Source: Planctomycetaceae bacterium (lineage in GTDB: Bacteria; Planctomycetota; Planctomycetia; Planctomycetales; Planctomycetaceae). Taken from it: 40,927 nucleotides of DNA. Of the stretch, positions 27,684 to 40,927 are shown in pieces. Where the stretch lies: NCBI GenBank assembly GCA_046318755.1, contig JBKCTR010000474.1:1-40927 (forward strand), in the 5' to 3' direction. The position numbers were made by a program, and so were the translations under genes. Within the stretch, counting starts at the first letter, position 1; each line of letters begins with the position of its first letter. The notes below the pieces were generated by a model. It made no database searches. It was not told where the DNA came from and saw nothing but the letters and a program-made list of their open reading frames with translations.

Positions 27684-30600
27684 TCAATTCACCGTCTCGG
27701 CTCCGCCCTCGTTCAGATCGCTCACCACGTCGCCGGTGAATTGCCAGAACCAGTCGAGCGCCAGGCCCCCGATGAGGGTGTCGAACAGGCTGGAACCGTC
27801 GGTCTGGATGGTGGTGCTGTTCAACTTCGACGTGCCGTTCAGGCCTCCGCCGTTGCGGAGGTTGCTGATCCGTGTGGCATAGGGGAGGTCGAGCCGCGAC
27901 CACTCATCGCGAATCGCCTGAATGGCCGGCCGGGTCAAAACCTTCGTCGTCTCGCTGTAGTAGGTCGTCAGGCCCGGGGCGACGATGTCTTCGTCATCAC
28001 CCCCATCCAGCGTGTCGGCTCCCGTGCCGCCAAACAGAATGTCCCGCCCGGCCCCTCCCCAGAGAGTGTCGTTCCCCGCCCCCCCGAAGATCACGTTGTC
28101 GAGGCTGTTCCCCGTCAGGCTGTCGGCCGCCGCCGTGCCAATCAGCAGTTCGAACACATCCCCCGCGCTCAACCCCAGCGACAGGTTTGCGTTGACCGCC
28201 TGGACCGCCGTCGTTCCCAGGTCGACCGTCACCCCCACGGTCGTGGTCCCGAAGTCGAGCAGGTCGACTCCCTCGCCGGGCTGTTCGACCAGTGCGTCGG
28301 TCCCCTGTGCCGCGTTGGCGGCGAAGACGTAGCCATCATCGCCGGTTCCCCCGGCGAGCGTGTCGTTCCCCGCCTGGCCGGTCAGCGTGTCATTCCCGGC
28401 ATTCCCCTGCAGCAGGTTGTCGAGGGCGTTGCCGGTCAGCGTGTCGTTCAGCAGGCCCCCAATCACATTTTCCAACGCGGTCGCCAGCCCCAGCACCAGC
28501 GAGAGGTTGGTATTCACCACCTGCGAAGTGGCCGTCCCCAGGTTGATCGTCACTGCCAGTGCAGTCGTCCCCGAGAAGTCGAGCGTGTCGATGCCGCCGG
28601 CCGCTTCGTTCAGCGTATCGGCTCCCAGCGCACTGTTGGCGGCAAACAGGTAGGTGTCGTTCCCCAACCCGCCGGTCAGCGTGTCATTCCCGGCGAGTCC
28701 CGAGAGGGTGTCATCCCCGTCGTTGCCCGCCAGCGTGTTCGCCAGCGCATTGCCAATCAACAGATCCCCCAGCGCCCCCCCCAACACGCTTTCGAACGTG
28801 TTGCCCGCCCCCAGCACGAGACTGAGGTTGGCGTTCACCACCTGCATCGTGGCCAGTCCCAGATTCACCGCCACCCCCAGCGTGGTGGTGGCCGAGAAAT
28901 TCAGGACATCGACTCCCCCCGCCGCCTCATCCAGCGTGTCGGTCCCCAGGTTCTCATCCGCGGAGAAGAGGTAGCCGTCATTCCCCAAGCCGCCGACCAG
29001 GGTGTCATCTCCCGCGAGGCCGGCCAGGGTGTCATTCCCCGCCCCCCCCACCAGCCGGTTCGCCACACCATTCCCTGTAAGGGTGTCATTCAGGCTTCCC
29101 CCGGTGACATTCTCGAAGGTGTCGACGGCATTCAGCACGAGGCTGAGATTGGCGTTCACCAACTGGGTGGCGGCGAGCCCGAGGTTGACCGTCACCGCCA
29201 GCGAAGTTGTGGTGGTCAAGTCCAGCGTGTCGGTTCCTTCCCCGCCTGCCTCCTGCAGCGTGTCGGTCCCCAGTGCGGCGGTGGCTGCGAAGGCATAGGT
29301 GTCATCGCCGACTCCCCCCGCCAGGGTGTCATTCCCCGCGAGACCGGCCAGGGTGTCGTTGCCTCCGTTGCCCTGCAGCAAGTTGGCCAGCGTGTTGCCC
29401 GTCAACCTGTCGTTCAGTTGGCCTCCCGACACATTCTCAAACGCGGTCGCCAGCGTCAGCACCAGTGAGAGGTTGGGATTCACAACCTGAGCGGCTGTGG
29501 TGGCGAGATTCAGAGTCACTGCCACGTCGGTGGTGGCCGAAAAGTCGAGGGTGTCGTTGCCCCCCGCCGACTCGTTCAGCGTATCGGTTCCCAGAGGGCT
29601 GTTCGCCGCGAACAGGTACACGTCATTCCCCGCACCGCCGATCAGCGTGTCGTTCCCCGCCTCGCCCGACACCGAATCGTCGCCCCCATTCCCGGTGAGG
29701 GAATTGGCCAGCGAGTTGCCGGTCAAGAGATCGGCCAGCGGCCCCCCGCTGACATTCTCGAAGGTGTTGTCGGCCCCCAGGATCAGGCTGAGATTGGCGT
29801 TCACCACCTGTGCCGTGGCGAGCCCCAGATTGACTGTCACCCCGCTGGTGGTTGTCGTCGAGAAGTCGAGCGTATCCAGACCTCCCGCCGACTCATTCAG
29901 CGTGTCGGTCCCCAGACTGGAATCGGTCTTGAAACTGTAGCTGTCGTTCCCGAGACCCCCCGCAAGCGTGTCGTCCCCCCCCAAACCGATCAAGGTGTCA
30001 CTCCCGTCGCCACCACTCAGCACGTTCCCCAAGGCATTGCCGGTGAGCGTGTCGTTCAGGCTTCCACCCGTCACGTTCTCGAAGGTGTCGACCGCGTTCA
30101 GGATCACGGTCAGATTGCTGGCCACCATCGTCTGGGAGGTGGTCACACCGAGATTCACCACAACGGTCTTGGTGGTGGTGGCGGCGAAGTCGAACGTATC
30201 GAAACCCGCTCCCGCCAGCTCGGTCACACTGTCGCTCCCCAGCGCCACGTCGGCATCGAAGGCGTAGGTGTCATCGTCGTCCCCCCCCTGGAGAGCGTCG
30301 TTCCCCGCTCCTCCCTCCAGAGTATCGTTCCCCAGCCCACCCACCAGCGTGTCATTCCCGGCATTCCCACGCAGGCGGTTGCCCAGGGCGTTGCCTGTCA
30401 GCGTATCGTTCAGACCGCCGCCGAAGACGTTTTCGAACGTGTCGGCCGCACTCAACACCAGGCTCAGATTGGCGTTCACCACCTGTGGGGTCGCGAGTGC
30501 CAGATTGACCGCCACCGCCGCGCTGGTCGTCGTGCTGAAATCGAGCGTGTCGCTCCCCTCACCCGGCAGTTCGCCCAGAGAGTCTGTCCCCTGGCCAGAG

Positions 30601-33600
30601 CTCGCCGTGTAGGCGTAGGTGTCGTCTCCCAACCCCCCGGCCAGCGTGTCGTTCCCCGCCCCGCCAATCAGGATATTGGCGAGCGAATTGCCGGTCAGCG
30701 TGTCGGCCAGAGCCCCGCCCGTGGCCCCCTCGAAGGTCTCCCCCGAGTTCAGGGTCAGGTTGAGATTCCCCGCCACGACCGTCTGGGTCGTCTCCAGTCC
30801 CAGGTTCAACGTCACCCCCTTCGTGGTGGTGGTGGCGAAGGTGATGGTATCGCTCCCCTCCCCGGCGAACTCAACCAGAGTATCGCTCCCCACACCGCTG
30901 TTCGCGGCGTAGACGTAGCTGTCGTTGCCCAGACCTCCCGCCAGCGTGTCGTCGCCCAGCCCTCCAGTGAGGCTGTCATTGTTACCGGCACCCTGCAGAC
31001 TGTCGTGGCCCGCCCCGCCCGTCAGCACATTGGCCAGGGAATTCCCCAGCAGCACGTCGGCTCCGTCGCCCCCGGTGACGTTTTCGAAGACCGCGTCATT
31101 CTGCAGCGTCAGCGACAGGTTGGCATTCACCACCTGCAAAGTCGCCAGAGACAGGTCAATTGTCACCGCGGCGGCCGTCCCGGTGAAGTCCAGCAGGTCC
31201 GTACCACCTGTCGCGGTTTCGACCAGCGTGTCGGTCCCCAGCACGGTGTCGGCGTCGAACGCATAGATGTCGTTGCCGGTGCCTCCCGCCAGGGTGTCAT
31301 CCCCAGCACGGCCACTGAGTGCGTTGGCCTGTGTATTGCCCGTCAGGCTGTCATTTCCCCCACCGCCGATCGCATTTTCCAGTGCCGTGGCCGAGCCCAG
31401 AATCAGACTCAGTTGTCCCACCGCAACCACCTGCGTGGTTGCCAGCCCGAGGTTCACGCTGGCTCCCGTCATCACGGTGCGGGAGAAATCGATGGTGTCC
31501 AGGCCTCCGCCTGTTTCATCCACCGTGTCGGTTCCCAGCATCTCGTCGAGAGTGAACTGGAAGCTGTCATTCCCTGCGCCGCCGATCAGCGTGTCGTCGT
31601 CTCCCCCGCCAGCCAACAGGTCATTGCCGGCTCCCGCCGACAGCGTGTCGTTCCCACTGCCGCCTCCCAGGCTGTCGACCCCTCCACCCGTGGTCAATTG
31701 ATCGGCATCAGCCCCACCCTGGGCGAAGACCGGTTTGGTCTGGGCCGAGCTGTTGAAGACATCGGCCCCCCCCTGCAGCCGGGCCCGCCAGGTCGTCACA
31801 TCAGCCGAAGTGTAGTTGTAGAGAGTGCCGTTGACCGACAGTTGGAACGTTCCCGAGACTGTCACTGTGTCGGCGGCCCCCGTGCCATGGATCATCACCG
31901 GCCCCAGGGGGGCGTGATAGACCCCGGCGAACGCCGCGAGGTTGTCGACCGAGGGGCTCGCCTCCAGCTCGGACTGCTGATCCAGCCGGTCCACAAACAT
32001 CAGCAGTTGGTAGTCGGTGTCCGGCTCGGCCAGCCCGGCGCCCGGCAGGGCGATCTTGCCGGTCCCCGAGCCAATCGTCAATGTCTTGGTGTGCCGGCCG
32101 ATTGTCAGATCGCCAAACGCGGTGATTGGCACCGTCCCCAGCAGCAGGTCATTCGAGACATCGCCGTCGGCATCGGTGGCCCGATACAGCCCGATCTCGA
32201 ACGCACCCGAGGTGGAATAGAGCACGTCGTAGGTGAGGCTCAACTGGGTCAGCCCATTCGCAGTGAACGACACGGCGACCAGATTGGGATCGGGGGCGTC
32301 CGCTTCCCAGGAGGTGGCGGCGGTTCCCCATCCCTGGTGACCAGCCGCGTCGCGCACTCCGGTGGCGTCGATGGTGACGGTGAACGTCCCGTCGCTGGCC
32401 GTCCAGGTCGACAGCCCCGAGACCCCCCAGCGGTTCCCCCCCAGATCGGTGATGACCAACGAGGAATCGACAGGCATCGCAACCCCGCCGCGCGTCAGGC
32501 TGACATCGCGCCAGTCGAACGAACCAGGCTCAATCGCTTCCGAGAACTGCACGGTGACGGCATCCACCGGCACCGTCTGCGCTCCCGCCCAGGCGTCCTC
32601 AATGACCGCCGTGGGCCGGACCCACTCGAACACCAGGTTCTGCCCCGAAGCCAGGCGGGAATTCGCCGCGTTGAACGACACCAGCCGCCGCTGGGCCGAG
32701 TGGTTCACTCCGTCGGTCAGCCCCACCGTCGCGCTGGCCCCCTGGTCGCGGCTGGGCGTGCCAATCTGCGTGTCGATAAAGTCGATCCGGATTTCGGAAT
32801 TGTTCAGGCCTGTGTTGAGGGGCAGAGTCGCCTGGAACGTGACCGCACCGGTGGGCTCGCTGTAATGGGCCATTTCCCACCAGCACAGTTGCAACGCCTC
32901 GGGAACTCCATTGGCGTCGACGTCGACAAACCGCGCCAGAACCTGGTCGTCGGAATTCCGGTCGGTCACCGTGTCATCCCAGTAGACCGCCACGGCAGGC
33001 ACCGTCGGACTGGAGGCGAGGTTCGTGTTGGTCCAGGTGGTGACCGGACTTCCCAGGCTGATCAGCCCATTGTCGCTGACATACAGCGATGTCGCGCCGG
33101 TGTAGTCGACCCCCCACAGGCGGAACGTGTTGGTCCCCAAATCCAGGGGAACCGACACATCGTCCACCCCGTCGATGAGGGTGAAGACTCCCGGTGTGGT
33201 GGGGGTCAGGGGGTCCACCGCCGAGACCGGCGACACCACGACGGGCAGGATGGGTGCCGCGACCTGCTGCTGTTTCAGCCAGGCCAGCGTCGAGGCGGCA
33301 TTCAACCGTTTGCCTGACACCGTCTTCCCCGCGAGGGCCGCCAGCGAATCGCCACTGTCCATCACCGCCTGCTTCAGCTGCAGATGGGTGGCCCCTGGAA
33401 ACTGTGCGGCCGCCAGGGCCACCACACCCGCCACATGCGGGGCGGCCATCGAAGTGCCGCTGTAGGTGCCGTAGTTGTTCCCCGGCAAAGTACTGAAAAT
33501 CGCCGCACCCGGCGCGCCGAGGTCGACCTTGGTCGCTCCGTAGTTGGAGAAACTCGCCAGCAGGTCGGACGCATTTGTCGCGGCCACCGAGATGATGTTG

Positions 33601-34739
33601 TTGTTGCTGTACGCGGCGGGATAAAAGCCCCCGGTCTCGATGTTGGTCGCTTCGTTCCCCGCCGCCGCCACGAACAGCACTCCCTGGTCTCCCGCCGCCT
33701 GGATGGCGCTTTCCATCGTCGGGTCGTAACCGCCCCCCCCCCAGCTGTTGTTGGTGGCGATCAGGTTGACACCCCGCTCGCGCATCATCGTGGAGTAGTT
33801 GACGGCACGGATCGCGTCGGTGGTGAGTCCCGAGCCCGAAGCGCTCAGGAACTTCAGCCCCATCAGCTTCACATTCCAGTTGACCCCCACCACCCCCACG
33901 CCGTTGTTCCCGACAGCGCCAATCGTTCCCGCCACGTGCGTCCCGTGCCCGTTGTCGTCGAGCGGATCGTTGTCTTCGTTGAAAAAGTCCCAGCCATGGA
34001 TGTCGTCCACGAAACCATTGCCGTCGTTGTCCTGGCCATCACCCGCGATCTCCCCGGGATTGGTCCAGATGTTCGCCGCCAGGTCGGGGTGGTTGTAATC
34101 AATTCCCGTGTCGATGATTCCCACCACCACCGACGAACTGCCGGTGGTCACGTCCCAGGCGGCCGGGGCATCGATATCGGCATCGGCTACTTTCCCGCTG
34201 CCCCCCAGGTTTTCCAGTCCCCACAATTGTGAAAACGATGGGTCGTTCGACAGGCGGGCAAGGCTGACCTGCTGGTCCGGCGAAAAAGAGGCCACGGCCG
34301 ACTGCGTCTGCAGCCAGCGCCCAACCTCGGCCGGGCTGGCGTCAAACGTGCGCCATTGCAGCGTGCCGACGCCGCCCAGACCCCGCACCACCTGGGAGGC
34401 GAACGGAGCCTGGGCAAACAGCGGTGCCGTCGCCACCACGCTGGATACGTCGCCCGAGGTGCTCGTTAACTGCACGATCCAGTCGGTCCCCAACCCCCGC
34501 TCCAGGGAGGTCCCGTGCACTTCGGTCGTGTCCAGCGTCGGGCTGGACGCAGCCGCAGGACCGGCTGCGAACCAGGCGGGAGAGACCTTCGGTCCCAGGC
34601 CGGCGCTGGCCAGCAGCGCCCGCGATTCCAGCACTTCCCCCGCCGTGCCCCACCCGTTGATCGCCCGCCGAGTCCGTGCCACTCCCCGCCCCACCCCGCA
34701 CCAACCACGCAGCAGCTTCGACCAGACGGGACGCGTCAT
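27684..34739 (-). CDS. Giant secreted subtilase (peptidase S8) fused to about 11 tandem RTX-like calcium-binding repeat modules
   Basis: 2351-aa ORF. S8 catalytic triad contexts are VVVGIIDTGIDYNHPDL, HGTHVAGTIGAVGN and GTSMAAPHVAGVVALAAAQ. The C-terminal half is built of ~100-108 aa modules (LGTDTLxExxGGxDTLDFSxTT...VNLGLATxQVVNANLSLxL...FENVxGGxxNDxLTGN...GGAGNDTLxGGxGNDxY) containing GGxGxD nonapeptides. Confidence 0.9.
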   Translation of the reverse strand: MTRPVWSKLLRGWCGVGRGVARTRRAINGWGTAGEVLESRALLASAGLGPKVSPAWFAAGPAAASSPTLDTTEVHGTSLERGLGTDWIVQLTSTSGDVSSVVATAPLFAQAPFASQVVRGLGGVGTLQWRTFDASPAEVGRWLQTQSAVASFSPDQQVSLARLSNDPSFSQLWGLENLGGSGKVADADIDAPAAWDVTTGSSSVVVGIIDTGIDYNHPDLAANIWTNPGEIAGDGQDNDGNGFVDDIHGWDFFNEDNDPLDDNGHGTHVAGTIGAVGNNGVGVVGVNWNVKLMGLKFLSASGSGLTTDAIRAVNYSTMMRERGVNLIATNNSWGGGGYDPTMESAIQAAGDQGVLFVAAAGNEATNIETGGFYPAAYSNNNIISVAATNASDLLASFSNYGATKVDLGAPGAAIFSTLPGNNYGTYSGTSMAAPHVAGVVALAAAQFPGATHLQLKQAVMDSGDSLAALAGKTVSGKRLNAASTLAWLKQQQVAAPILPVVVSPVSAVDPLTPTTPGVFTLIDGVDDVSVPLDLGTNTFRLWGVDYTGATSLYVSDNGLISLGSPVTTWTNTNLASSPTVPAVAVYWDDTVTDRNSDDQVLARFVDVDANGVPEALQLCWWEMAHYSEPTGAVTFQATLPLNTGLNNSEIRIDFIDTQIGTPSRDQGASATVGLTDGVNHSAQRRLVSFNAANSRLASGQNLVFEWVRPTAVIEDAWAGAQTVPVDAVTVQFSEAIEPGSFDWRDVSLTRGGVAMPVDSSLVITDLGGNRWGVSGLSTWTASDGTFTVTIDATGVRDAAGHQGWGTAATSWEADAPDPNLVAVSFTANGLTQLSLTYDVLYSTSGAFEIGLYRATDADGDVSNDLLLGTVPITAFGDLTIGRHTKTLTIGSGTGKIALPGAGLAEPDTDYQLLMFVDRLDQQSELEASPSVDNLAAFAGVYHAPLGPVMIHGTGAADTVTVSGTFQLSVNGTLYNYTSADVTTWRARLQGGADVFNSSAQTKPVFAQGGADADQLTTGGGVDSLGGGSGNDTLSAGAGNDLLAGGGDDDTLIGGAGNDSFQFTLDEMLGTDTVDETGGGLDTIDFSRTVMTGASVNLGLATTQVVAVGQLSLILGSATALENAIGGGGNDSLTGNTQANALSGRAGDDTLAGGTGNDIYAFDADTVLGTDTLVETATGGTDLLDFTGTAAAVTIDLSLATLQVVNANLSLTLQNDAVFENVTGGDGADVLLGNSLANVLTGGAGHDSLQGAGNNDSLTGGLGDDTLAGGLGNDSYVYAANSGVGSDTLVEFAGEGSDTITFATTTTKGVTLNLGLETTQTVVAGNLNLTLNSGETFEGATGGALADTLTGNSLANILIGGAGNDTLAGGLGDDTYAYTASSGQGTDSLGELPGEGSDTLDFSTTTSAAVAVNLALATPQVVNANLSLVLSAADTFENVFGGGLNDTLTGNALGNRLRGNAGNDTLVGGLGNDTLEGGAGNDALQGGDDDDTYAFDADVALGSDSVTELAGAGFDTFDFAATTTKTVVVNLGVTTSQTMVASNLTVILNAVDTFENVTGGSLNDTLTGNALGNVLSGGDGSDTLIGLGGDDTLAGGLGNDSYSFKTDSSLGTDTLNESAGGLDTLDFSTTTTSGVTVNLGLATAQVVNANLSLILGADNTFENVSGGPLADLLTGNSLANSLTGNGGDDSVSGEAGNDTLIGGAGNDVYLFAANSPLGTDTLNESAGGNDTLDFSATTDVAVTLNLATTAAQVVNPNLSLVLTLATAFENVSGGQLNDRLTGNTLANLLQGNGGNDTLAGLAGNDTLAGGVGDDTYAFAATAALGTDTLQEAGGEGTDTLDLTTTTSLAVTVNLGLAATQLVNANLSLVLNAVDTFENVTGGSLNDTLTGNGVANRLVGGAGNDTLAGLAGDDTLVGGLGNDGYLFSADENLGTDTLDEAAGGVDVLNFSATTTLGVAVNLGLATMQVVNANLSLVLGAGNTFESVLGGALGDLLIGNALANTLAGNDGDDTLSGLAGNDTLTGGLGNDTYLFAANSALGADTLNEAAGGIDTLDFSGTTALAVTINLGTATSQVVNTNLSLVLGLATALENVIGGLLNDTLTGNALDNLLQGNAGNDTLTGQAGNDTLAGGTGDDGYVFAANAAQGTDALVEQPGEGVDLLDFGTTTVGVTVDLGTTAVQAVNANLSLGLSAGDVFELLIGTAAADSLTGNSLDNVIFGGAGNDTLWGGAGRDILFGGTGADTLDGGDDEDIVAPGLTTYYSETTKVLTRPAIQAIRDEWSRLDLPYATRISNLRNGGGLNGTSKLNSTTIQTDGSSLFDTLIGGLALDWFWQFTGDVVSDLNEGGAETVN
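28010..31715 (-). repeat. Intragenic tandem repeat region (about 11 units of roughly 300-330 nt) encoding the RTX-like modules
   Basis: Periodicity is visible in the protein. It also shows in the antisense track as a ladder of similar ORFs starting MSSPxPPxxVSFPAPP (29002, 29299, 29968, 30268, 30619, 30925, 31267). The boundaries are approximate. Confidence 0.8.
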
Positions 34740-35007
34740 CGCAACCTCTGTGAACAGGGCATCGGCCCGGAAATCTCCCCGTGCCGACGCAACACCAACC
34801 CGAAAGCGAAGACCCGGAACATCCGGATCTCTTCACGCAGCCTGCCCTCGAGTGGCCGGGGCCACCACGCCAACACCTTCGATTATACCCCGCGGACGGC
34901 CGCTCTCCAAAAAGCGAAGACGCCCGACACTCCACCGCCAGACTCCCGGCGTTCCACAGGGCCGCGACTTCGGTCCAGAACCGTCCGCGCCGCGGGGCAG
35001 GTCGGGA

Positions 35008-36204
35008 TCAGGAGGGGGGCGGAACGCTCCCCGTGGCCGACAACCCATCCGAGTGGCTGCCCGACCCCCCTTCGGACGAATCCTCGTCGGGTTCGCCGAC
35101 CTCATGGACCATCGTCTCCCCCTCGACCAGCCGCAGCACCACCGGAGAGACCCGCGACTTCCGTTCGATGGCCTCCGTCAGCGGCGTCGAGTGGGTCGTC
35201 ACCCAGACCTGCGAATACCGCGCCGCGTCGACAATCAACTCGGCCAACGGAGCCAGCAGGTCGGGGTGCAGACTCGCCTCGGGTTCGTTGAGGGCGATCA
35301 AGGCGGGGGGACGGGGCGACAACAACGCCGCCACCAGGCACAAATACTTCAGCGTTCCGTCCGACAACTCCCGCGCGACCAACGGACGCAGGCAACCCTC
35401 GGTACGCAACGCCACACACAGCTCGGTGGTGCGGGGAGAGCGATGGGTGGGATCGGGGTCGTTCGCCAGAATCTCCAGGGCCCGTCCCGGCAACGCTCGC
35501 GAGATCGCCTCCTGCAGCGTGCGGGCATCGCCCAATTCCAGAATTGTCTGCAGGGCCGCGGCCAGATCGCTGCCATCGTGGCTCAGCACCGGCGTCCGCA
35601 CGCTGATCTGCGGGGTCCGCACCGGAGCCTCGGCATCGGTCCGAAACGCATGGTAGAACCGCCACTGCCGCATCTCGTCCCGCAGGGAATACAACTCAGG
35701 AAACCGCTGCGGCTCCCGCAACTGCGACAGAATCGATTCGTTCTCGGTCAAGGCCGCGGGATATTCGACCGTCTCTCCCTCGGGATCGCGCAGCTTGGCC
35801 ATGCCTCCCCGGCGATCGACCAGGGTCGTCGAAGGCCGGCGGACCTTCCCCAGCCAGACCGCCTCTTCCTTGATCTGGGGGTCGTAGCCGAACAGGGTGT
35901 TTCCGGGGATCGGAAACCCGCAGTCGAGCTGAAACGAAAGCTGGTCGGTCCCGAACCCCAGCGACATCCGCCAGGGATCCTTGCTGCGACGGGGTCCCGC
36001 CCACAAAGCCGAGGCCAGGCCCCCCTCCTGGCACAGCGCCCGGGCGAACCCCCCCTCGGCAATCTGAGCCAACAGCCACAGTGCGCGGTAGAGATTCGAC
36101 TTGCCCGAGCCATTGGGGCCGGTCACGACGGTCAACCGTCCGAGCGCCAGCCGCACGTCACGCAGCGAACGATAATTGCGGAGGGACAGTTCGGTGATCG
36201 GCAT
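35008..36204 (-). CDS. ABC/SMC-like AAA ATPase (AAA_21 / COG4637-type predicted ATPase), no fused or adjacent effector
   Basis: Walker A VVTGPNGSGKSNLYRAL, signature-like LSDGTLKYLCLVAALL, Walker B/D-loop ALIALNEPEASLHPDL and H-loop VWVTTHS. I prefer ATG 36204 (MPITELSLRNYRSL); the ORF-track start at 36210 is a TTG. Confidence 0.8.
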   Translation of the reverse strand: MPITELSLRNYRSLRDVRLALGRLTVVTGPNGSGKSNLYRALWLLAQIAEGGFARALCQEGGLASALWAGPRRSKDPWRMSLGFGTDQLSFQLDCGFPIPGNTLFGYDPQIKEEAVWLGKVRRPSTTLVDRRGGMAKLRDPEGETVEYPAALTENESILSQLREPQRFPELYSLRDEMRQWRFYHAFRTDAEAPVRTPQISVRTPVLSHDGSDLAAALQTILELGDARTLQEAISRALPGRALEILANDPDPTHRSPRTTELCVALRTEGCLRPLVARELSDGTLKYLCLVAALLSPRPPALIALNEPEASLHPDLLAPLAELIVDAARYSQVWVTTHSTPLTEAIERKSRVSPVVLRLVEGETMVHEVGEPDEDSSEGGSGSHSDGLSATGSVPPPS

Positions 36205-36244
36205 GGGCAAGAGCCGGAATGGGACGGTCGGGAGGTCCCCGGCA

Positions 36245-36314
36245 CAACCTCACCGTTAAAAACTCACAGGGACCAACTCACCGGAGCCACCTCACCGGAG
36301 CCAACTCACCGGGG
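36245..36314. repeat. Tandem 14-nt repeats CCA(A/C)CTCACCGG(A/G)G, three good copies plus two degenerate, 35-105 nt upstream of the ATPase start
   Basis: ccaactcaccggag (36273-36286), ccacctcaccggag (36287-36300), ccaactcaccgggg (36301-36314). Degenerate caacctcaccgtta and aaactcacaggg lie just before them. Confidence 0.8.
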
Positions 36315-36463
36315 GGCGGGCAGACTGACCCACCCGCCGAGCGGGAAAGAGGCCGGGTTGTCGGCAGGCGAACGGCAGACCGGTTCGACCCGCGTCCAAG
36401 GCTTCCAGCGAGGACTCCCCCTGACAACAGCCCAGTTGTACCGCCGTATCCGCCATCCGGCCA

Positions 36464-36540
36464 CCCCGTGGTGACAAACTTCCAGTTTGTCAGTCCCCCA
36501 AAGCCCAACCCCACCCGGCATGACCTTTGGTGTCATAAAG
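36464..36540. repeat. 77-nt repeat, copy 1 (9-bp hairpin TGACAAACT-tcc-AGTTTGTCA; C-tract block)
   Basis: ccccgtggtgacaaacttccagtttgtcagtcccccaaagcccaaccccacccggcatgacctttggtgtcataaag. It matches copy 2 at 72 of 77 positions. Confidence 0.9.
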
Positions 36541-36625
36541 CGGAGTCCTTCTCCTCCTGACCACCCACGCTGTCACGCCGTCTCGTCATCCCGAACAGGA
36601 TTTCAATCTTGTTCTACGGAAAGCG

Positions 36626-36702
36626 CCCCGTGGTGCCAAACTTCCAGTTTGTCGGTCCCCCAAAGCCCAACCCCACCCGGCATGACCTTTGGATTGATAA
36701 AG
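36626..36702. repeat. 77-nt repeat, copy 2 (same orientation, 162 nt downstream of copy 1)
   Basis: ccccgtggtgccaaacttccagtttgtcggtcccccaaagcccaaccccacccggcatgacctttggattgataaag. Confidence 0.9.
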
Positions 36703-36704
36703 GC

Positions 36705-36790
36705 GGGTAACCGGGGCCATCGGGTAACCGGGGCCATCCAATGTTGGGCAACCGGGGCCATCCAACGTCGCTCGCAACCGGGGCCATCCA
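36705..36790. repeat. Array of four AACCGGGGCCATC(CA) repeats (spacing 17, 24-25 and 26 nt)
   Basis: gggtaaccggggccatc occurs twice (from 36705 and 36722). gcaaccggggccatcca occurs twice (36748-36764 and 36774-36790). The reverse complement is (G)GATGGCCCCGGTT. Confidence 0.85.
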
Positions 36791-36904
36791 TTGTTGACAT
36801 TGTTGAAACCCGGCCCGGCATCGACCGGCCGCAAATCAGTCATTTCGCCATAACCCTCATCCAGAATACGACTTGCAGTGAAACCCGCAGGCTCTTCCCA
36901 CAAT

Positions 36905-36933
36905 GGGTGGCCCCTCCTACTGGCCCCTCCTAC
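36905..36933. repeat. GGGTGGCCCCTCCT (left arm of a 14-nt perfect inverted repeat) overlapping a tandem duplication of TGGCCCCTCCTAC
   Basis: gggtggcccctcct at 36905-36918. tggcccctcctac at 36908-36920 and again at 36921-36933. On the minus strand each unit contains AGGAGG. Confidence 0.85.
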
Positions 36934-36961
36934 CCACCTATCTTTTCAATCTTTTCATCTT

Positions 36962-38380
36962 TTAGACGAGCTGTGAACCCACTTTGGCGAACAGGCTGCT
37001 CAGCCACGTGTTGCGAAACACGCCTTGAGAATCTCTCGACACACAGGCGGTGCGGAAGTCTTCGAACTGGGGATAAAGTGAGATGAGTGTTTCGGCCGAC
37101 AGTGGGCACCACTTACCCCAATGCGGTCTCGCGCCAAACTGAGCGGCCATCGTTTCGGCCAGAAATCTGGCCACCTGCTGAAATCCATCCCGGTCCACAG
37201 GTCGCGCATAGCTGATCAGGCTGATGGCATACCATGCCCCTTCATCGCCCGCCGTCATCGAAATCAGGGTGTCGTCGGCCAGGACGCGTCGGATGCAGAT
37301 CGGGTAATGATGGCAGTATCGCCCCCGGATTGAACGGAACTGGTCTGGACCCTGCGACCCGGAACTCGAGGTTTCGGGTACATCAGCTGCGGTTGCCAAG
37401 ACGCGACGGACGTAGTCAAGAGCTTCAGGGAGATGTTGACTCCGCACGAACAATTCAATTTCGATATGACGAAACAGTTCGTGCTCCATGACGAGCATCG
37501 CCGATGATTCATCCGTCACTCTCCAACCGCGGATGACCGTCCGCGGAATGATGTGACGATAGAGGAACTGCACGAATCGCCAACTCGCCGCCAGGCGAAC
37601 GGTAAAGAGCACGAGCAAGTGAAGGCCAACGTCGATGAACAGAAACCAGTACGCTCGATAGAGCCACGCAAGAGCCGAGCGGGGCAGTACGTTTTCCCGA
37701 CGATGCTGAGCCATGAAGGTCCATCGCCAGGGAACCAGAAAAAACTGCTGCAGCGGGAACTCTCGCTCCGCAGCCAGCACCGGGTCGAGTGTGCGATACT
37801 CTTGCCAGTGTTCTTCAATCGAGTACTGACGGCGGCAGCGAACGCGCAAACTGAGGATGACCCCAAGTCCACCCAGGGAACAACGCGCTGCTTGCAATGC
37901 GTCGCCCCCTTCAATCTGCTCGATAATCGACATCCCGGTCGCCTCGTCATAGCGTGCCAGACGAACTACATCGACGTAGTGTGACAAGCTATGTCGTCCG
38001 GAACCATGGGTTCCCGTCGAAATCGCTCCCGCAATCGTCTGTTCCGTGATCAGCCCAACGGAGGGGAGCGTTTGACCGTGTCGTTTCAGGTGGGCCAGCA
38101 GGGCCTTGATCTGGCACCCAGCCCCAACGGTCACCCAGCCAGCGTCATGGTCACACTGCACTTCGACCTGATTCAAGTGCCGCAGATTGATCACGACCCC
38201 ATCGCTGACGGGTGCAGAACTCCAGGAATGCAGACTGCCGATCGCTCGAATCTTCTCTCCGCGATGTCGGTCCAGGATTTCCAGAACCTCGCTCTCCATC
38301 CGAGGCTCATAGTAAGCCGACGGACGCAGATCGAGGTTGCGTCCGAAGTTCTGAAGATGTTTCCCGTGGCTCACGAGCAA
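36962..38380 (-). CDS. FAD-linked oxidase of the D-arabinono-1,4-lactone / L-gulonolactone oxidase (ALO) family
   Basis: 472-aa ORF. FAD_binding_4-type N-half (IRAIGSLHSWS, GLITEQTIAGAISTGTHGSG, GGLGVILSLRV) and ALO-type C-half (FGARPHWGKW). TTG start at 38380 is preceded by GAGGTGA, with 4 nt between the SD and the TTG. G+C is visibly lower than in neighbouring genes. Confidence 0.85.
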   Translation of the reverse strand: MLVSHGKHLQNFGRNLDLRPSAYYEPRMESEVLEILDRHRGEKIRAIGSLHSWSSAPVSDGVVINLRHLNQVEVQCDHDAGWVTVGAGCQIKALLAHLKRHGQTLPSVGLITEQTIAGAISTGTHGSGRHSLSHYVDVVRLARYDEATGMSIIEQIEGGDALQAARCSLGGLGVILSLRVRCRRQYSIEEHWQEYRTLDPVLAAEREFPLQQFFLVPWRWTFMAQHRRENVLPRSALAWLYRAYWFLFIDVGLHLLVLFTVRLAASWRFVQFLYRHIIPRTVIRGWRVTDESSAMLVMEHELFRHIEIELFVRSQHLPEALDYVRRVLATAADVPETSSSGSQGPDQFRSIRGRYCHHYPICIRRVLADDTLISMTAGDEGAWYAISLISYARPVDRDGFQQVARFLAETMAAQFGARPHWGKWCPLSAETLISLYPQFEDFRTACVSRDSQGVFRNTWLSSLFAKVGSQLV

Positions 38381-38608
38381 AGTATCACCTCACAGTTCCG
38401 AGGTTGCCGCATTGATGGCCGAGAACCAACCACCTCGATGCTAACACACTAACACAGATTGCCTTACCGATATTCAGCGTAAACCTGGAAATGATCGTGT
38501 AAAACGGACCCACCTGAGCGCCGAAATCAGACCCACCCGGGTGAGGGGGTGGAAGGTGCCGGGGGGAGGTCGGCACACGGGGGTCATTCAGGAGGTTGAA
38601 GAACAAAA

Positions 38609-38622
38609 AGGAGGGGCCACCC
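38609..38622. repeat. AGGAGGGGCCACCC, right arm of the 14-nt perfect inverted repeat bracketing the oxidase gene
   Basis: Exact reverse complement of 36905-36918. Confidence 0.85.
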
Positions 38623-38692
38623 TGTGTTTAATCGTCTCAAAAGATCGTCACAACCCGTTGCTGGATAATTGCTTACGTTGGTTTTGTGGCAT

Positions 38693-38744
38693 GTGTACGC
38701 ATTTTTGAGTGTACACTAGACAGTCAATAATATCGTGTGTACAC
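38693..38744 (+). promoter_or_regulatory. Candidate promoter TTGAGT-N17-TAATAT overlapped by GTGTACAC palindromes (putative operators) upstream of the RAYT-like gene
   Basis: TTGAGT at 38705-38710, a 17-nt spacer, TAATAT at 38728-38733. Perfect 8-nt palindromes GTGTACAC at 38709-38716 and 38737-38744, and a variant GTGTACGC at 38693-38700. This is the most AT-rich stretch I saw in the window. Confidence 0.4.
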
Positions 38745-38826
38745 AGTATTCACCAGAACCGGTTTGGCCAACGCTTGGTTCTCGCGCCCCGTTCCCTTTC
38801 CGCTTTCATTCCGCCCTGGGTGGTCC

Positions 38827-40167
38827 ATGTCGCGATTGCCGCGCCAGTTCTTGTTCGATCCGCTGGAGGTGGGGGTATATCACTGCATCAACCGCTGTGT
38901 CCGCCGGTCGTTCCTGTGCGGCTGGGATCCGTACACCCAGCGGTCGTATGAACATCGCAAGGTCTGGCTGCAGCAGCGTCTGATGTTCCTCGCCTCGGTC
39001 ATGGCCATAGATATCGAAGGGTTCTGCATTATGGCCAATCATCTGCACCTCATCGTCCGCAATCGACCCGATGTGGCCGGGCAGTGGTCTCCCGAGCAGA
39101 TCGCGCGGAAGTGGTTGCAGTTATGTCCGCCTTACAAGCCCGGCACCCGCGAGGTGGCCGAGAGTCCCTCGCAGGCGGACCTGGACGCCATTCTCAACAA
39201 TCCCACCCGGGTGGAACAGTTGCGTCTGTGGCTGTCGAATCCCTCGTGGCTGATGCGGTTTTTGACCGAGAAACTCGCCCGCGTCGCCAACCGGGAAGAA
39301 CGGACCACGGGCCGTTTTTGGGAAGGACGCTTCAAGATGCAGCGGCTGCTGGATGAATGGGCGGTCGCCGCGTGCCTGGTGTATGTCGATCTGAACCCGA
39401 TCCGGGCCGGCCTCACCAACACGCTGTCGCACAGCGAGCACACCGCGGTGTTCGAGCGCTTGGCCGGGGTGGTGCACTTCTTCGCGACCACCCTCTCGGC
39501 CCAGCAGCGGCAAGAGTATGGCCTGGAGGCAGAGGACCCCGCCTGTTCGCCCGAGCCAGCAACCGACCAGGCCGGGGGAGAAGAGCCGCCCGGAATCATC
39601 GAGGCCACCGGTTCCCAAGCGGTCGAGACCACACCCACCGGATCTCAGACAGCCCCGCCGGCCGGGTCCAAGGGACCGCCCCACTCGAAACCAGCCGATC
39701 GCAGCGCTTGGTCTCGCCTGCCGTCCGACCTGGTGAACCAGGCCTCGCGCGAAGCAGCGTTCGAGGGGCCGGCGACGTGGCTGGCTCCTCTGGAGATCAC
39801 CGAGCCGGCGTTGCAGCAGGCGGTCCCCGGCACCCGGGCGTCAAACCTGGGGTGCCTGAACATGACCTGCGCCCAGTACCTCGAACTGTTGGAGTGGACC
39901 GGACGGCAAGTCAAGGCGGGGAAAGTCGGGCGACTGCCAGCCGACGAACCCCCGATTCTGCAGCAACTGGGGGTCAAGGGAGAGGGCTGGCTGAAACTGG
40001 TGGCGAGCTTCCACACCAAACGCGGGGGACTGCGGCGAGCGATCGGACGACCCGCCGCTTTGGAGGCCGAGGCGGCCAAGCGCGGGCAACGCTGGATCCA
40101 GGGCATCGCCCTCAGCCGGGAAATCTTTGGCAAGACATCGGGCGATGGCCCACCTGAGACGAATTGA
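38827..40167 (+). CDS. RAYT-like HUH/Y1 protein (IS200-like transposase fold, COG1943 type) with a long Pro/Ala/Gly-rich linker and a C-terminal extension
   Basis: Start at ATG 38827 (MSRLPRQFLFDPLEVGVYHCINRCVRRSFL). HUH motif FCIMANHLHLIV, then GRFWEGRFK, then the catalytic-Tyr block ACLVYVDLNPIRAGL. Order and spacing match REP-associated tyrosine transposases. At 446 aa it is much larger than classical ~150-aa RAYTs. Confidence 0.8.
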   Translation: MSRLPRQFLFDPLEVGVYHCINRCVRRSFLCGWDPYTQRSYEHRKVWLQQRLMFLASVMAIDIEGFCIMANHLHLIVRNRPDVAGQWSPEQIARKWLQLCPPYKPGTREVAESPSQADLDAILNNPTRVEQLRLWLSNPSWLMRFLTEKLARVANREERTTGRFWEGRFKMQRLLDEWAVAACLVYVDLNPIRAGLTNTLSHSEHTAVFERLAGVVHFFATTLSAQQRQEYGLEAEDPACSPEPATDQAGGEEPPGIIEATGSQAVETTPTGSQTAPPAGSKGPPHSKPADRSAWSRLPSDLVNQASREAAFEGPATWLAPLEITEPALQQAVPGTRASNLGCLNMTCAQYLELLEWTGRQVKAGKVGRLPADEPPILQQLGVKGEGWLKLVASFHTKRGGLRRAIGRPAALEAEAAKRGQRWIQGIALSREIFGKTSGDGPPETN

Positions 40168-40257
40168 CGGGATGCGCCGGGCGAGGGGCCGTCATCCGAG
40201 ATCGCGAATCGGGCTCGGCTGGGGAGACGCTGCGCGACGAATATTGAACACCCGCCT

Positions 40258-40566
40258 GCATCAGGCGTTTTAGCGGGCAATTGCCGAATCGAAATGAGGC
40301 GCATCCAGACGCCAGCCAGCGACGACGGTAGAACTGGGGTGGAATCCGCGAGTGTGCCGAATCAACTTGAGCGGCCTGACAAACAAAGGGTGGCCCCGTG
40401 CTCCCAGTGCTCCCCCCAGCATCAGGCGTTTTAGCGGGCACTGGCCGAATCGAAATGTGTCGCTTCCAGGCGCCAGCCAGTGACGACGGGAGACCTGGGG
40501 GGGACTTCGCGAGTGTGCCGACTCAACTTGAGCGGCCTGACACACCATGGCTGGCCCCGTGCTCCC
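40258..40566. repeat. Two tandem 148-nt units (period 161 nt, about 88% identical) starting 90 nt after the RAYT-like stop
   Basis: Unit A is 40258-40405 and unit B is 40419-40566. Both begin gcatcaggcgttttagcgggca and end ..gcgagtgtgccga(a/c)tcaacttgagcggcctgac...tggccccgtgctccc. Confidence 0.9.
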
Positions 40567-40743
40567 AAAGAATGGCCCCGTGCTCCCACCAACAAAGGAT
40601 GGCCCCGTGCTCCGTAAAACAAAGGATGGCCCCGTGCTCCCCGCCCGTGCTCCCGTGGCCCCGTGCTCCCGTGCTCCAAGGGTGGCCCCGTGCTCCCGCA
40701 CGTGCTCCCGGAGAGTGCTCCCGCACACTACAACCGGGAGCAC
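40552..40743. repeat. Array of TGGCCCCGTGCTCC repeats (six copies here and one at 40391; spacing mostly 27 nt) with extra GTGCTCCC half-sites and a terminal 8-bp hairpin
   Basis: Copies start at 40552, 40573, 40600, 40627, 40656 and 40683. Half-sites gtgctccc are scattered through 40647-40722. gtgctccc (40715-40722) pairs with gggagcac (40736-40743) across a 13-nt loop. Confidence 0.85.
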
Positions 40744-40800
40744 CGCCGAGGCGGCTTGCAGCCGGGTGCGCGATTCCCCCCCCGACGCCGCAGGCACCGC

Positions 40801-40927
40801 CTACAGTTTCGCGAGGTAATTGATGCTCTGCCGGATGCTGGCGAGGGGGTCGGGCGACTGGTCCTGCTCGACGTGGCAGTGTTCCACCCCGGCGGCCTTG
40901 GCCGCCTCCAGAATCGGTTCCCACGAG
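40801..40927 (-). CDS. C-terminal 41 aa of a sugar phosphate isomerase/epimerase (xylose isomerase-like TIM barrel); the 5' end lies beyond the window
   Basis: Absent from the ORF track. Hand translation gives ...SWEPILEAAKAAGVEHCHVEQDQSPDPLASIRQSINYLAKL* with stop TAG at 40803-40801. The VEQD...DPL.S...S..YL ending is typical of this family. Confidence 0.55.
   Translation of the reverse strand, partial: SWEPILEAAKAAGVEHCHVEQDQSPDPLASIRQSINYLAKL

Follow-up and report, generated by a model that had tools for sequence, protein, structure and literature searches.

The DNA analysed here is a stretch of 40,927 nucleotides from a Planctomycetaceae bacterium (GenBank assembly GCA_046318755.1, contig JBKCTR010000474.1, positions 1 to 40,927 of the forward strand), referred to below as the window. 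Between 36705 and 40745 it holds a gene for a 446-aa protein resembling the RAYTs, i.e. the tyrosine transposases associated with repetitive extragenic palindromic (REP) sequences, together with an oxidase gene and arrays of short repeats in opposite orientations. The initial annotation took these repeats to be a candidate system of the REP or bacterial interspersed mosaic element (BIME) type. With a probability of about 0.7, the locus is better labelled a TIRtron, in which a RAYT-like (TIRYT) gene, here encoding a protein like those of TnpA-Y1 subclass 2.3, is flanked by terminal inverted repeats, and in which these ends have been amplified.

The left end (LE) of the unit is defined as GGGGCCACCC on the plus strand and the right end (RE) as GGGTGGCCCC. 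Read from 36705 to 40745, the order of features is four LE copies, two RE copies, the oxidase gene on the minus strand, a conserved non-coding block, one LE, the TIRYT gene, one RE, a second RE, five RE units, lone GTGCTCCC half-units and a hairpin (Table 1). The proximal LE lies 214 nt ahead of the start codon, and an inverted repeat of 17 nt and 94% complementarity (38613-38629 / 40381-40397) flanks the gene. In each array unit the core has an A-rich part (AACAAA) on its inner side and a G/C-rich half-motif on its outer side; the half-motif varies, being GTGCTCCC in the right array, GGTTGCC in the left array, GGCTTCCCC at the locus of an ortholog of 84% identity (L001), and GGCCTCG plus GGGTGGACC at that of an ortholog of 74% identity (L095).

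Table 1. Coordinates and properties of the transposase gene, its ends and neighbouring features in the window (LE, left end; RE, right end; ORF, open reading frame; AF2, AlphaFold; z, z-score against shuffled sequences).
Feature	Position	Strand	Remarks
TIRYT gene, 446-aa Y1/HUH tyrosine endonuclease/transposase	38827..40167	+	ORF, profile, alignment, AF2 model
Proximal LE	38609..38629	-	plus strand reads AGGAGGGGCCACCCTGTGTTT, the reverse complement of the RE motif AAACA(C/A)AGGGTGGCCCC
Proximal RE	40381..40405	+	AAACAAAGGGTGGCCCCGTGCTCCC; 224 nt past the stop codon
Tandem duplication, 161 nt x 2, sub-terminal 3' region	40251..40567	+	copies 88% identical
RE array	40546..40726	+	five further units of ~21-30 nt, (AACAAA)GG(A/G)TGGCCCCGTGCTCC(C), then lone GTGCTCCC half-units
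Stable hairpin GTGCTCCCGG...CCGGGAGCAC	40702..40743	+	-22.9 kcal/mol, z = -4.14, 0/200 shuffles as stable
Non-coding block outside the proximal LE	38478..38582		near base-for-base match to the 84% ortholog (L001:5510-5605)
Distal LE-type array	36705..36796	-	four units, (G)GCAACC-GGGGCCATCC-AATGTTG on the plus strand; minus strand reads GGATGGCCCCGGTTGCC
RE-type copies ACAATGGGTGGCCCCTCCTAC and TGGCCCCTCCTAC	36900..36933	+	inverted repeats with the distal LE array
Isolated palindrome GTGGCCGGGGCCAC	34852..34865		overlapping RE-like and LE-like half-sites; intergenic, past the ATPase gene
Oxidase gene	36962..38380	-	

Two oppositely oriented arrays sharing a TGGCCCCG core had been described initially, and every sequence statement made about them could be located in the window. 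The left array consists of four copies of AACCGGGGCCATC(C) on the plus strand, equivalent to GGATGGCCCCGGTT on the minus strand, and all four units include CCGGGGCCATC(C). On the right side TGGCCCCG occurs seven times on the plus strand (40391, 40552, 40573, 40600, 40627, 40656 and 40683), each copy being directly followed by GTGCTCC, and the half-motif GTGCTCCC runs on alone to 40722, ending in the stable hairpin. The right array had been given seven copies; the count of copies stands, but the first two are the ends of the 161-nt tandem duplication rather than array units. Since the RE motif closes each copy of this duplication, it is anchored at the right end. Clean periods of 26 and 27 nt were not recovered, left spacings being 17, 24 and 26 nt and right spacings 161, 21, 27, 27, 29 and 27 nt. 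The additional motif copies listed at 36905 (+), 38613 (-), 40388 (+) and 40680 (+) are all present, as are the palindrome GTGGCCGGGGCCAC and the lower GC content of the oxidase region (0.55-0.59 vs 0.65-0.70 in the flanks).

Compared with dinucleotide-preserving shuffles, of which none out of 100 reached the observed number in any case, the window contains 14 copies of TGGCCCCG (5.25 +/- 2.5 expected), 13 of GTGCTCCC (2.8 expected) and 10 of GGRTGGCCCC (1.09 expected). Eleven of the 14 TGGCCCCG copies fall in the two arrays, with opposite orientations, and 9/10 copies of GGRTGGCCCC, those at 36905, 38613, 40388 and 40680 among them, are confined to the interval 36730-40689. Beyond 36.7-40.7 kb the motif is found about as often as chance predicts: when one mismatch is tolerated, the whole window has 22 matches and 21.6 were expected.

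That the repeats are linked to the RAYT-like gene, as the initial annotation had suggested, is supported by relatives in several phyla, which are flanked by the same motif in the same orientation. In metagenome contigs bearing orthologs of 53-100% identity, TGGCCCC is found antisense upstream and sense downstream of the gene, and AC..GG.TGGCCCCG is invariant in the right ends. All orthologs of at least 74% identity have one proximal copy 211-214 nt before the start codon (the proximal LE standing at -214 or -211) and one 221-244 nt after the stop codon. At more distant loci (80 loci from one-genome-per-species contigs, 32-53% identity, of Planctomycetota, Verrucomicrobiota, Lysobacterales, Bdellovibrionota, Chromatiales and further groups), the commonest inverted 9-mers flanking the gene are variants of one core, i.e. 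TGGGTGGCA, TGGGTGTCC, TGGATGTCC, TGGATGGCC and GGGTGGCCC. A generalised core, GG[GA]TG[GT]C[CA], was counted at 85 loci (32-100% protein identity) from Planctomycetota, Verrucomicrobiota, Lysobacterales, Bdellovibrionota and Chromatiales. Within 1 kb it occurs 133 times antisense vs 13 times sense upstream and 132 times sense vs 6 times antisense downstream, an enrichment that is strand-specific, and it counts against these figures that the core was derived from the same loci, which are partly related and not all independent. Such a derivation would not, however, by itself produce the strand asymmetry or restrict the core to the flanks. Core density reaches 4.45 per kb over the 250 nt that precede the gene and 1.6-3.0 per kb over the 750 nt that follow it, against ~0.1-0.3 per kb within genes and in most bins past ~1.25 kb (0.56 in the highest bin). 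The median distance is 88 nt from the nearest LE to the start codon and 237 nt from the stop codon to the first RE.

In genomes of relatives, as distinct from the window genome, the repeats can be seen to act as boundaries of a repeated unit. A Pirellulaceae chromosome (OZ244209.1) carries four copies of ~95% identity, whose alignment runs from ACAGGGACACCCAA to TTGGGTGTCCCTGTTTTGTG and whose flanks are unrelated, and no target duplication is visible at the ends of these copies; in BPJV01 unit copies of 98% identity are arranged in tandem and inverted. Homology among copies starts and stops at the motif, which is therefore the terminal inverted repeat of a unit that carries the gene and is itself repeated. 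Within one locus, LE and RE also agree beyond the 8-nt core, at 5.9 of 12 inner positions (4.9 for shuffled pairings) and 5.8 of 12 outer positions (4.5), values reached by 0/200 shuffles, and the ends therefore represent a co-varying repeat of roughly 20 nt. On inspection, which was not quantified, motif variants seemed to track protein and taxon groups. The repeats are very likely the cognate terminal inverted repeats of this gene.

The encoded protein is a distant, much longer relative of the RAYTs. It has an HUH motif NHLHLIV (His72, His74), a W motif FWEGRF and a Tyr motif VYVDLNPIRAG (Tyr186), followed by a disordered linker (residues 236-289) and a conserved C-terminal region. His72, His74, Tyr186 and the following DLNP are invariant in an alignment of 25 relatives (43-100% identity). 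The initial annotation had anticipated a match to Y1 transposase models; with Pfam Y1_Tnp (PF01797) the protein stays below the cut-off (E = 0.08, 13.5 bits vs 23), weak matches to this model being found in 15/25 relatives, whereas NCBIfam REP_Tyr_transpos (NF047646), a curated RAYT model, gives E = 4.8e-9, though at 36.2 bits this too is under its cut-off of 80 bits. In the AlphaFold model (mean predicted local distance difference test score, pLDDT, 77.7) the best Foldseek match in the PDB (E = 7e-4, probability 1.00, target-normalised template modelling score 0.69) is 4er8_A, the complex of E. coli TnpA-REP with a REP hairpin; the transposases of IS200, ISDra2 and IS608 rank after it. A RAYT-like Y1/HUH protein is thus supported by the NCBIfam match, the invariant catalytic residues and the structural match to TnpA-REP. 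A PDB sequence search with the family profile returned only marginal IS200 transposase matches (E ~0.3) over the HUH strand, and searches of PADLOC and PHROGs with the 446-aa protein returned no match. Modelled alone, the C-terminal region reaches a mean pLDDT of 58 and is unusable; in the full model residues 300-360 exceed 90, which would fit a segment packed on the core and not a free DNA-binding domain. The family is large, with > 6000 proteins at E <= 0.001 among 8000 candidates scored, and its named sources are mostly Planctomycetota; many members are annotated by JGI as 'REP element-mobilizing transposase RayT'. Complete genomes with family members include OZ244209.1, CP197422.1 and CP129486.1, and the window's own locus is also present in GCA_046337825.1 (contig JBKCYT010000280.1). 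Several metagenome contigs (L097, L105-L111) carry gene parts only (residues 1-257, 1-228, 128-257 or 280-444) at 70-90% identity, and these may be truncated or interrupted copies that break around the disordered linker.

Outside the proximal LE, the non-coding block carries degenerate end-like pieces (GGACCCACC, GACCCACCCGGGTGAGGGGGTGG) and a terminator-like hairpin on the minus strand (38553-38532), and is probably the outermost left part of the unit. Its conservation at the 84% ortholog is above that of the coding sequence although the neighbour genes there differ. We consider it likely that the core unit reaches from ~38478 to ~40745, with GGGGCCACCC(T)TTGTTT as LE and AAACAAAGGGTGGCCCC plus the outer G/C-rich half-motif as RE, and that its ends lack hairpins. 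In this lineage direct arrays have been built from these ends by amplification, with a sevenfold RE on the right and, ~2 kb to the left, a fourfold LE with a gene-less mini element. The latter consists of an LE, the last unit of the left array (36779-36796), and an RE, the copy at 36900; this LE...RE pair spans ~140 nt without a gene, resembles a miniature inverted-repeat transposable element and, as single-stranded DNA, has a stem of ~19 bp (fold of 36777-36922, overall z only -1.65). The layout at the 74% ortholog is homologous, with an LE array, ~100 nt and then CGACAATGGCTGGCCCC. A hairpin search of the ends, sub-terminal regions and arrays found nothing above shuffles except this LE/RE stem and the hairpin at 40702-40743. 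This hairpin, in which a direct GTGCTCCCGG is combined with an inverted one, marks the outer margin of the RE array and is not followed by a T-run; ~60 nt separate it from the stop codon of a sugar-phosphate isomerase gene that runs convergently. An Rfam scan of 34700-40927 at E <= 1 gave one sub-threshold chance match only, leaving the repeats and conserved non-coding blocks unexplained by known RNA families.

Between the LE and the start codon, two GTGTACAC palindromes (38709-38716 and 38737-38744) flank a weak promoter-like element, TTGAGT-17 nt-TAATAT at 38705-38733, which matches at 8/12 positions by eye; a sigma-70 promoter scan, in which 38705-38749 was included, gave nothing at threshold. 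The arrangement is kept at the 84% ortholog and, with small changes, at the 74% ortholog, and judged from its sequence it may be a promoter with operators.

Arrays of ends are frequent and variable in the family, at least 3 copies being present downstream in 22/72 loci and upstream in 18/79, with spacings mostly of 20-50 nt. Contigs encoding one identical protein (P0002) have 4, 6, 7 or 8 RE copies, and strains with the window's protein have 4 or 5 LE copies. At one locus whose protein is identical to the window's (L011) there are five LE units and an LE-anchored duplication of the inner ~47 nt, and the 74% ortholog has ~10 LE units at the equivalent place. Tandem duplications anchored at an end, of widely differing length, recur in independent lineages as well. 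In the window the RE is joined to a site in the 3' non-coding region (161 nt); in L011 and L112 a 281-nt duplication starts 38 nt inside the gene's 3' end (junction GTGCTCCCGTT/TGGCAAGAC); in L063 the duplication is 310 nt long (junction GTTATTGTCCT/GGCAAGCTC); and in L032 it covers ~1.4 kb, with its junction (AAGTTTC/CAACCACTTGC) in the HUH codons and AAGTTTC also terminating the outermost copy. In L095 a duplication of ~155 nt is present. Left ends show mirror-image, LE-anchored duplications. A junction sequence shared by the nested duplications was sought; GGCAAG occurs in 2/4, too few to tell from chance, and was discarded. Amplification of ends to arrays, copy number that varies between near-identical strains and recurrent end-anchored tandem duplications go beyond what has been described for TIRtrons.

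Because the duplications share the element terminus, at which plain slippage predicts no fixed boundary, we infer that the enzyme acts at the ends. In the scheme we propose, the enzyme would recognise an end sequence of ~20 nt at both ends and nick at or near the termini by means of Tyr186 and an HUH-bound metal, and rejoining of the strands would move or copy the unit without target duplications. If a cleaved terminus were rejoined further inside, or if templates were switched at an enzyme-bound end, tandem duplications sharing the terminus would result; these would build up arrays and destabilise their length, and the arrays would offer several binding sites per end. That the enzyme makes the arrays in this way, by nicking and rejoining at the repeats, is put forward tentatively, its chances being somewhat short of even. 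The fuller version, in which the enzyme writes the arrays by religating a nicked terminus inward or inserting new ends beside old ones, yields nested duplications of 21 nt to 1.4 kb, and sheds gene-less LE...RE pairs and solo ends, is rather unlikely. Were it true, the TIRYT family would be a hairpin-free Y1 transposition system, its inverted ends perhaps acting as a 'split REPIN', and a living intermediate between insertion sequences and repeat populations of the REP/REPIN type. The ends constitute defined substrates of 20-27 nt with clear predictions on how a Y1/HUH enzyme could work without hairpins, and bear on the origin of short repeat families from transposon ends.

Several points weigh against the TIRtron reading or the role it gives to the enzyme. 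To our knowledge, the Y1 enzymes studied to date act on single-stranded DNA, where they use hairpins, and one strand carries both ends. Ends that are inverted and free of hairpins misfit this scheme unless an extra assumption is made, for example that LE pairs with RE in single-stranded DNA, giving a split-REPIN stem such as the mini element can form, or that additional protein parts (e.g. the C-terminal region) would read double-stranded DNA. The duplication junctions of the window lineage lie 11 and 21 nt beyond the motif and thus point to no single cleavage site, and arrays could arise and change in size without the enzyme, by unequal exchange among short direct repeats or by replication slippage. 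In this lineage the gene may be immobile (domesticated). Finally, of GGGGWSAS, which many TIRYT repeats share, the window's GGGGCCAC matches 7/8 positions only, position 5 being C and not A/T; cores of relatives are GGGGACAC, which fits GGGGWSAS, and GGGACACC or GGTGCCAC.

A domesticated gene is one alternative in its own right, according to which the arrays serve a host function or the gene's own regulation as binding sites (iterons or operators), and change in length by slippage without any cleavage by the enzyme. There is apparently one locus per contig set in this lineage, vertical inheritance in single copy is frequent among RAYT groups (PMC5581495), slippage readily affects short direct repeats, and the LE sits in a promoter-like place given its median distance from the start codon across the family. 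We nevertheless regard this alternative as improbable, given that the catalytic His/His/Tyr residues are invariant over > 25 diverse members, that relatives are multi-copy with unit boundaries at the motif, and that in several lineages the duplications have the element terminus as a common boundary. The orthologous unit is, moreover, found in different contexts. Samples containing the 84% ortholog of the unit also contain orthologs, 93% identical, of the unit's right-hand neighbour gene in the window, and there the homology to the window ends within ~10 nt of the stop codon, the DNA beyond being unrelated, and the 84% ortholog of the unit has a different gene context. This shows that the unit changed position or that the region was rearranged. 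As an empty-site test based on the neighbour the comparison was set aside, having found a synteny break and not a clean empty site.

Two further alternatives differ from the TIRtron reading in what they take the repeats to delimit. The initial annotation had both arrays enclose the oxidase and the RAYT-like gene as one 3.6-kb unit, a view that is not favoured given that the gene has its own proximal LE and RE; in a related alternative, a 4-kb element has the outer LE array and the RE array at 40546-40726 as its working ends and the oxidase gene as its cargo. These outer arrays are correctly oriented (LE ... RE), their units are more like each other than like the proximal single copies, the GC content of the oxidase region is low, and the block of LE array, oxidase and gene is kept together in four other assemblies. 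By the orientation of ends, however, the oxidase is outside the unit and outside the mini element too, lying between an RE-type end (36900-36933) and the LE at 38609-38629, both of which turn their outer sides to it. The 74% ortholog has the same layout (LE array, RE, ~150 nt, LE, gene) without an oxidase, the 84% ortholog lacks it as well, its upstream neighbour being a HEAT/SEC-C gene, and the low GC extends over the first third (5' part) of the transposase gene. As cargo the oxidase was rejected, its nearest homologs (76% and 70% identity) sitting in other contexts with no motif nearby. It is most likely an ordinary neighbour between two sets of ends, and a composite element is very unlikely. 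A classical REPtron, i.e. REP/BIME-type repeats spread genome-wide as extragenic hairpins by a single-copy domesticated RAYT, would account for the RAYT-like fold with 4ER8 as its best structural match, the inverted flanking repeats, the palindromic site at 34852, the many assemblies that break at these repeats, and a solo CAAAACAAGGGTGGCCCCG in intergenic DNA of a related genome (L116:481-510). The identification as REP/BIME nonetheless fails on the repeats themselves, the units being non-palindromic, without a GTAG or CGTC tag, set in direct and not alternating arrays, and not dispersed over the other 36 kb of the window, where the motif is at chance. Folded as single-stranded DNA, the end regions have z-scores of ~0, and the RE array is less structured than every one of 200 shuffles (z = +3.07). 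In ~71 kb of neighbouring-locus contigs of this and a related lineage the exact motif occurs five times, and only the copy common to L116 and L119 has the inner AAACAA signature. Density falls to background in most bins past ~1.25 kb from the gene at the 85 loci, and certain genomes have, in the manner of an insertion sequence, several copies of the entire unit with its gene at 95-98% identity. A REPtron is accordingly highly improbable here.

The solo end-like copy in L116 (481-510; also in L119 near 845) reads CAAAACAAGGGTGGCCCCGTCCCCCC and is intergenic; an AP_endonuc_2-like gene lies ~260 nt downstream of it, and the contig as examined has no TIRYT gene. The palindrome GTGGCCGGGGCCAC has no other exact match in the window; with one mismatch allowed there are 4 matches vs 0.52 expected. 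It may be a solo or relic site, and its link to the unit is uncertain.

Other features of the window adjoin the locus or share single properties with it. Just outside the left array, a 77-nt direct repeat (36464-36540 and 36626-36702) has copies that are 94% identical and 162 nt apart, the first of which contains a 9-bp hairpin, GACAAACT...AGTTTGTC (z = -2.8). Among the compared loci this repeat is found at this locus only; contigs of two other assemblies (L113, L115) break inside it, so that several copies may exist in the genome. At 36261-36312, AACTCACCGGAGCC forms a 14-nt tandem repeat of 3.7 copies, beginning 57 nt upstream of the start codon of the ATPase gene (Tandem Repeats Finder score 76). 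This gene (35008-36204, minus strand) encodes an AAA_21/AAA_15 ATPase that in PADLOC is closest to HEC-01A (E = 6e-50), followed by the PARIS protein AriA (E = 2e-33), making it a candidate anti-phage defence gene adjoining the mobile unit. Four tandem repeats with a 27-nt period (28677-30977) lie inside the gene for a 2351-aa peptidase S8 / hemolysin-type protein (27684-34739, minus strand); they are coding, and their period equals that of the arrays with no sequence in common. Just upstream of the closest oxidase homolog, on another planctomycete contig, is a reverse-transcriptase gene (RVT_N + RVT_1; L127:2130-3107).

Among known systems, the HUH Rep proteins of rolling-circle replicons offer an analogy in their tandem binding repeats beside a nick site and in rearrangements that have one end point there. 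Michel and Ehrlich reportedly described, in 1986, illegitimate recombination anchored at the nick site of HUH Rep proteins at the M13 and pC194 origins. The present locus differs in having no origin, helicase, or plasmid or phage context, and its enzyme belongs to the transposase (Y1) branch. With the TnpA proteins of the IS200/IS605 group (IS608, ISDra2) it has in common the Y1/HUH fold and the lack of a target-site duplication at the ends of the repeated copies. In that group the hairpins are sub-terminal, a single strand bears both ends, the protein has ~150 aa and a Y---Q motif, and tnpB is often present, whereas here the ends are inverted and unstructured, the motif is Y-VDL-NP, the protein is 446 aa long and there is no tnpB. 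REPs, imperfect palindromes of 20-40 nt marked by a GTAG or CGTC tag, occur outside genes in tens to hundreds of copies, and in BIMEs the orientation alternates. REPtrons (Nunvar 2010; Ton-Hoang 2012, PMC3333891; Messing 2012, PMC3479197, PDB 4ER8) provide the closest solved fold and resemble the locus in their inverted cognate flanking repeats and in the co-evolution of gene and repeat; they differ in that the window's units have neither palindrome nor tag, stand in direct arrays and cluster at the gene.

Among the TnpA-Y1 subclasses, Quentin, Siguier, Chandler & Fichant 2018 (PMC6006769) placed 20/26 TIRYTs in subclass 2.1, which has a helix-turn-helix tail, and none in subclass 2.3. They characterised the latter by NHYH, WE and YVDLNP motifs, a beta3-alphaC insertion of ~55 aa and a long C-terminal tail with a TS motif, and found it in several copies per genome, mainly in Chromatiales and Alteromonadales, with no associated repeats reported. 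The window's protein shares YVDLNP, WE, N-H-u-H, the extended beta3-alphaC insertion and a long C-terminal tail in two parts, in which a Thr/Ser is conserved, as seen in NHLH, FWEGRF, VYVDLNP, the helices at 81-157 between strands 72-79 and 170-174, and the invariant Thr206. The family is likewise multi-copy in some hosts, and its relatives include Chromatiales and Alteromonadales sequences. Differences are the length (446 aa vs a median of 325), Leu instead of Tyr as the central HUH residue, the large size of the family in Planctomycetota, and its consistent flanking by an oriented motif. By these motifs, as read from the sequence and the model, the protein is 2.3-like. What emerges is a large branch of long proteins, 2.3-like by motifs, with one conserved oriented end motif across phyla, in a subclass for which repeats were previously unreported; the arrays explain the frequent assembly breaks beside the Planctomycetota genes labelled RayT by JGI.

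TIRYT genes and TIRtrons were named by Di Nocera, De Gregorio & Rocco 2013 (PMC3733652) for RAYT-like genes flanked by terminal inverted repeats and not by REPs; many of these repeats contain GGGGWSAS and stand similarly far from the gene, and some form clusters or reach moderate copy number. A text search of one literature library found TIRYTs mentioned in two works only and turned up nothing on them later than this study and Quentin 2018. The locus resembles TIRtrons in its RAYT-like Y1 protein, which is longer than RAYTs (446 aa vs 165 aa for chain 4er8_A), in flanking inverted repeats that lack REP-type stem-loops and are kept in orthologs, and in a G-rich core at a regular distance from the gene, sometimes as dimers or clusters and with few solo copies elsewhere. 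It differs from them in position 5 of the consensus and in arrays of up to 7-12 ends, nested end-anchored duplications and strain-to-strain length variation, the last three being undescribed in Di Nocera 2013.

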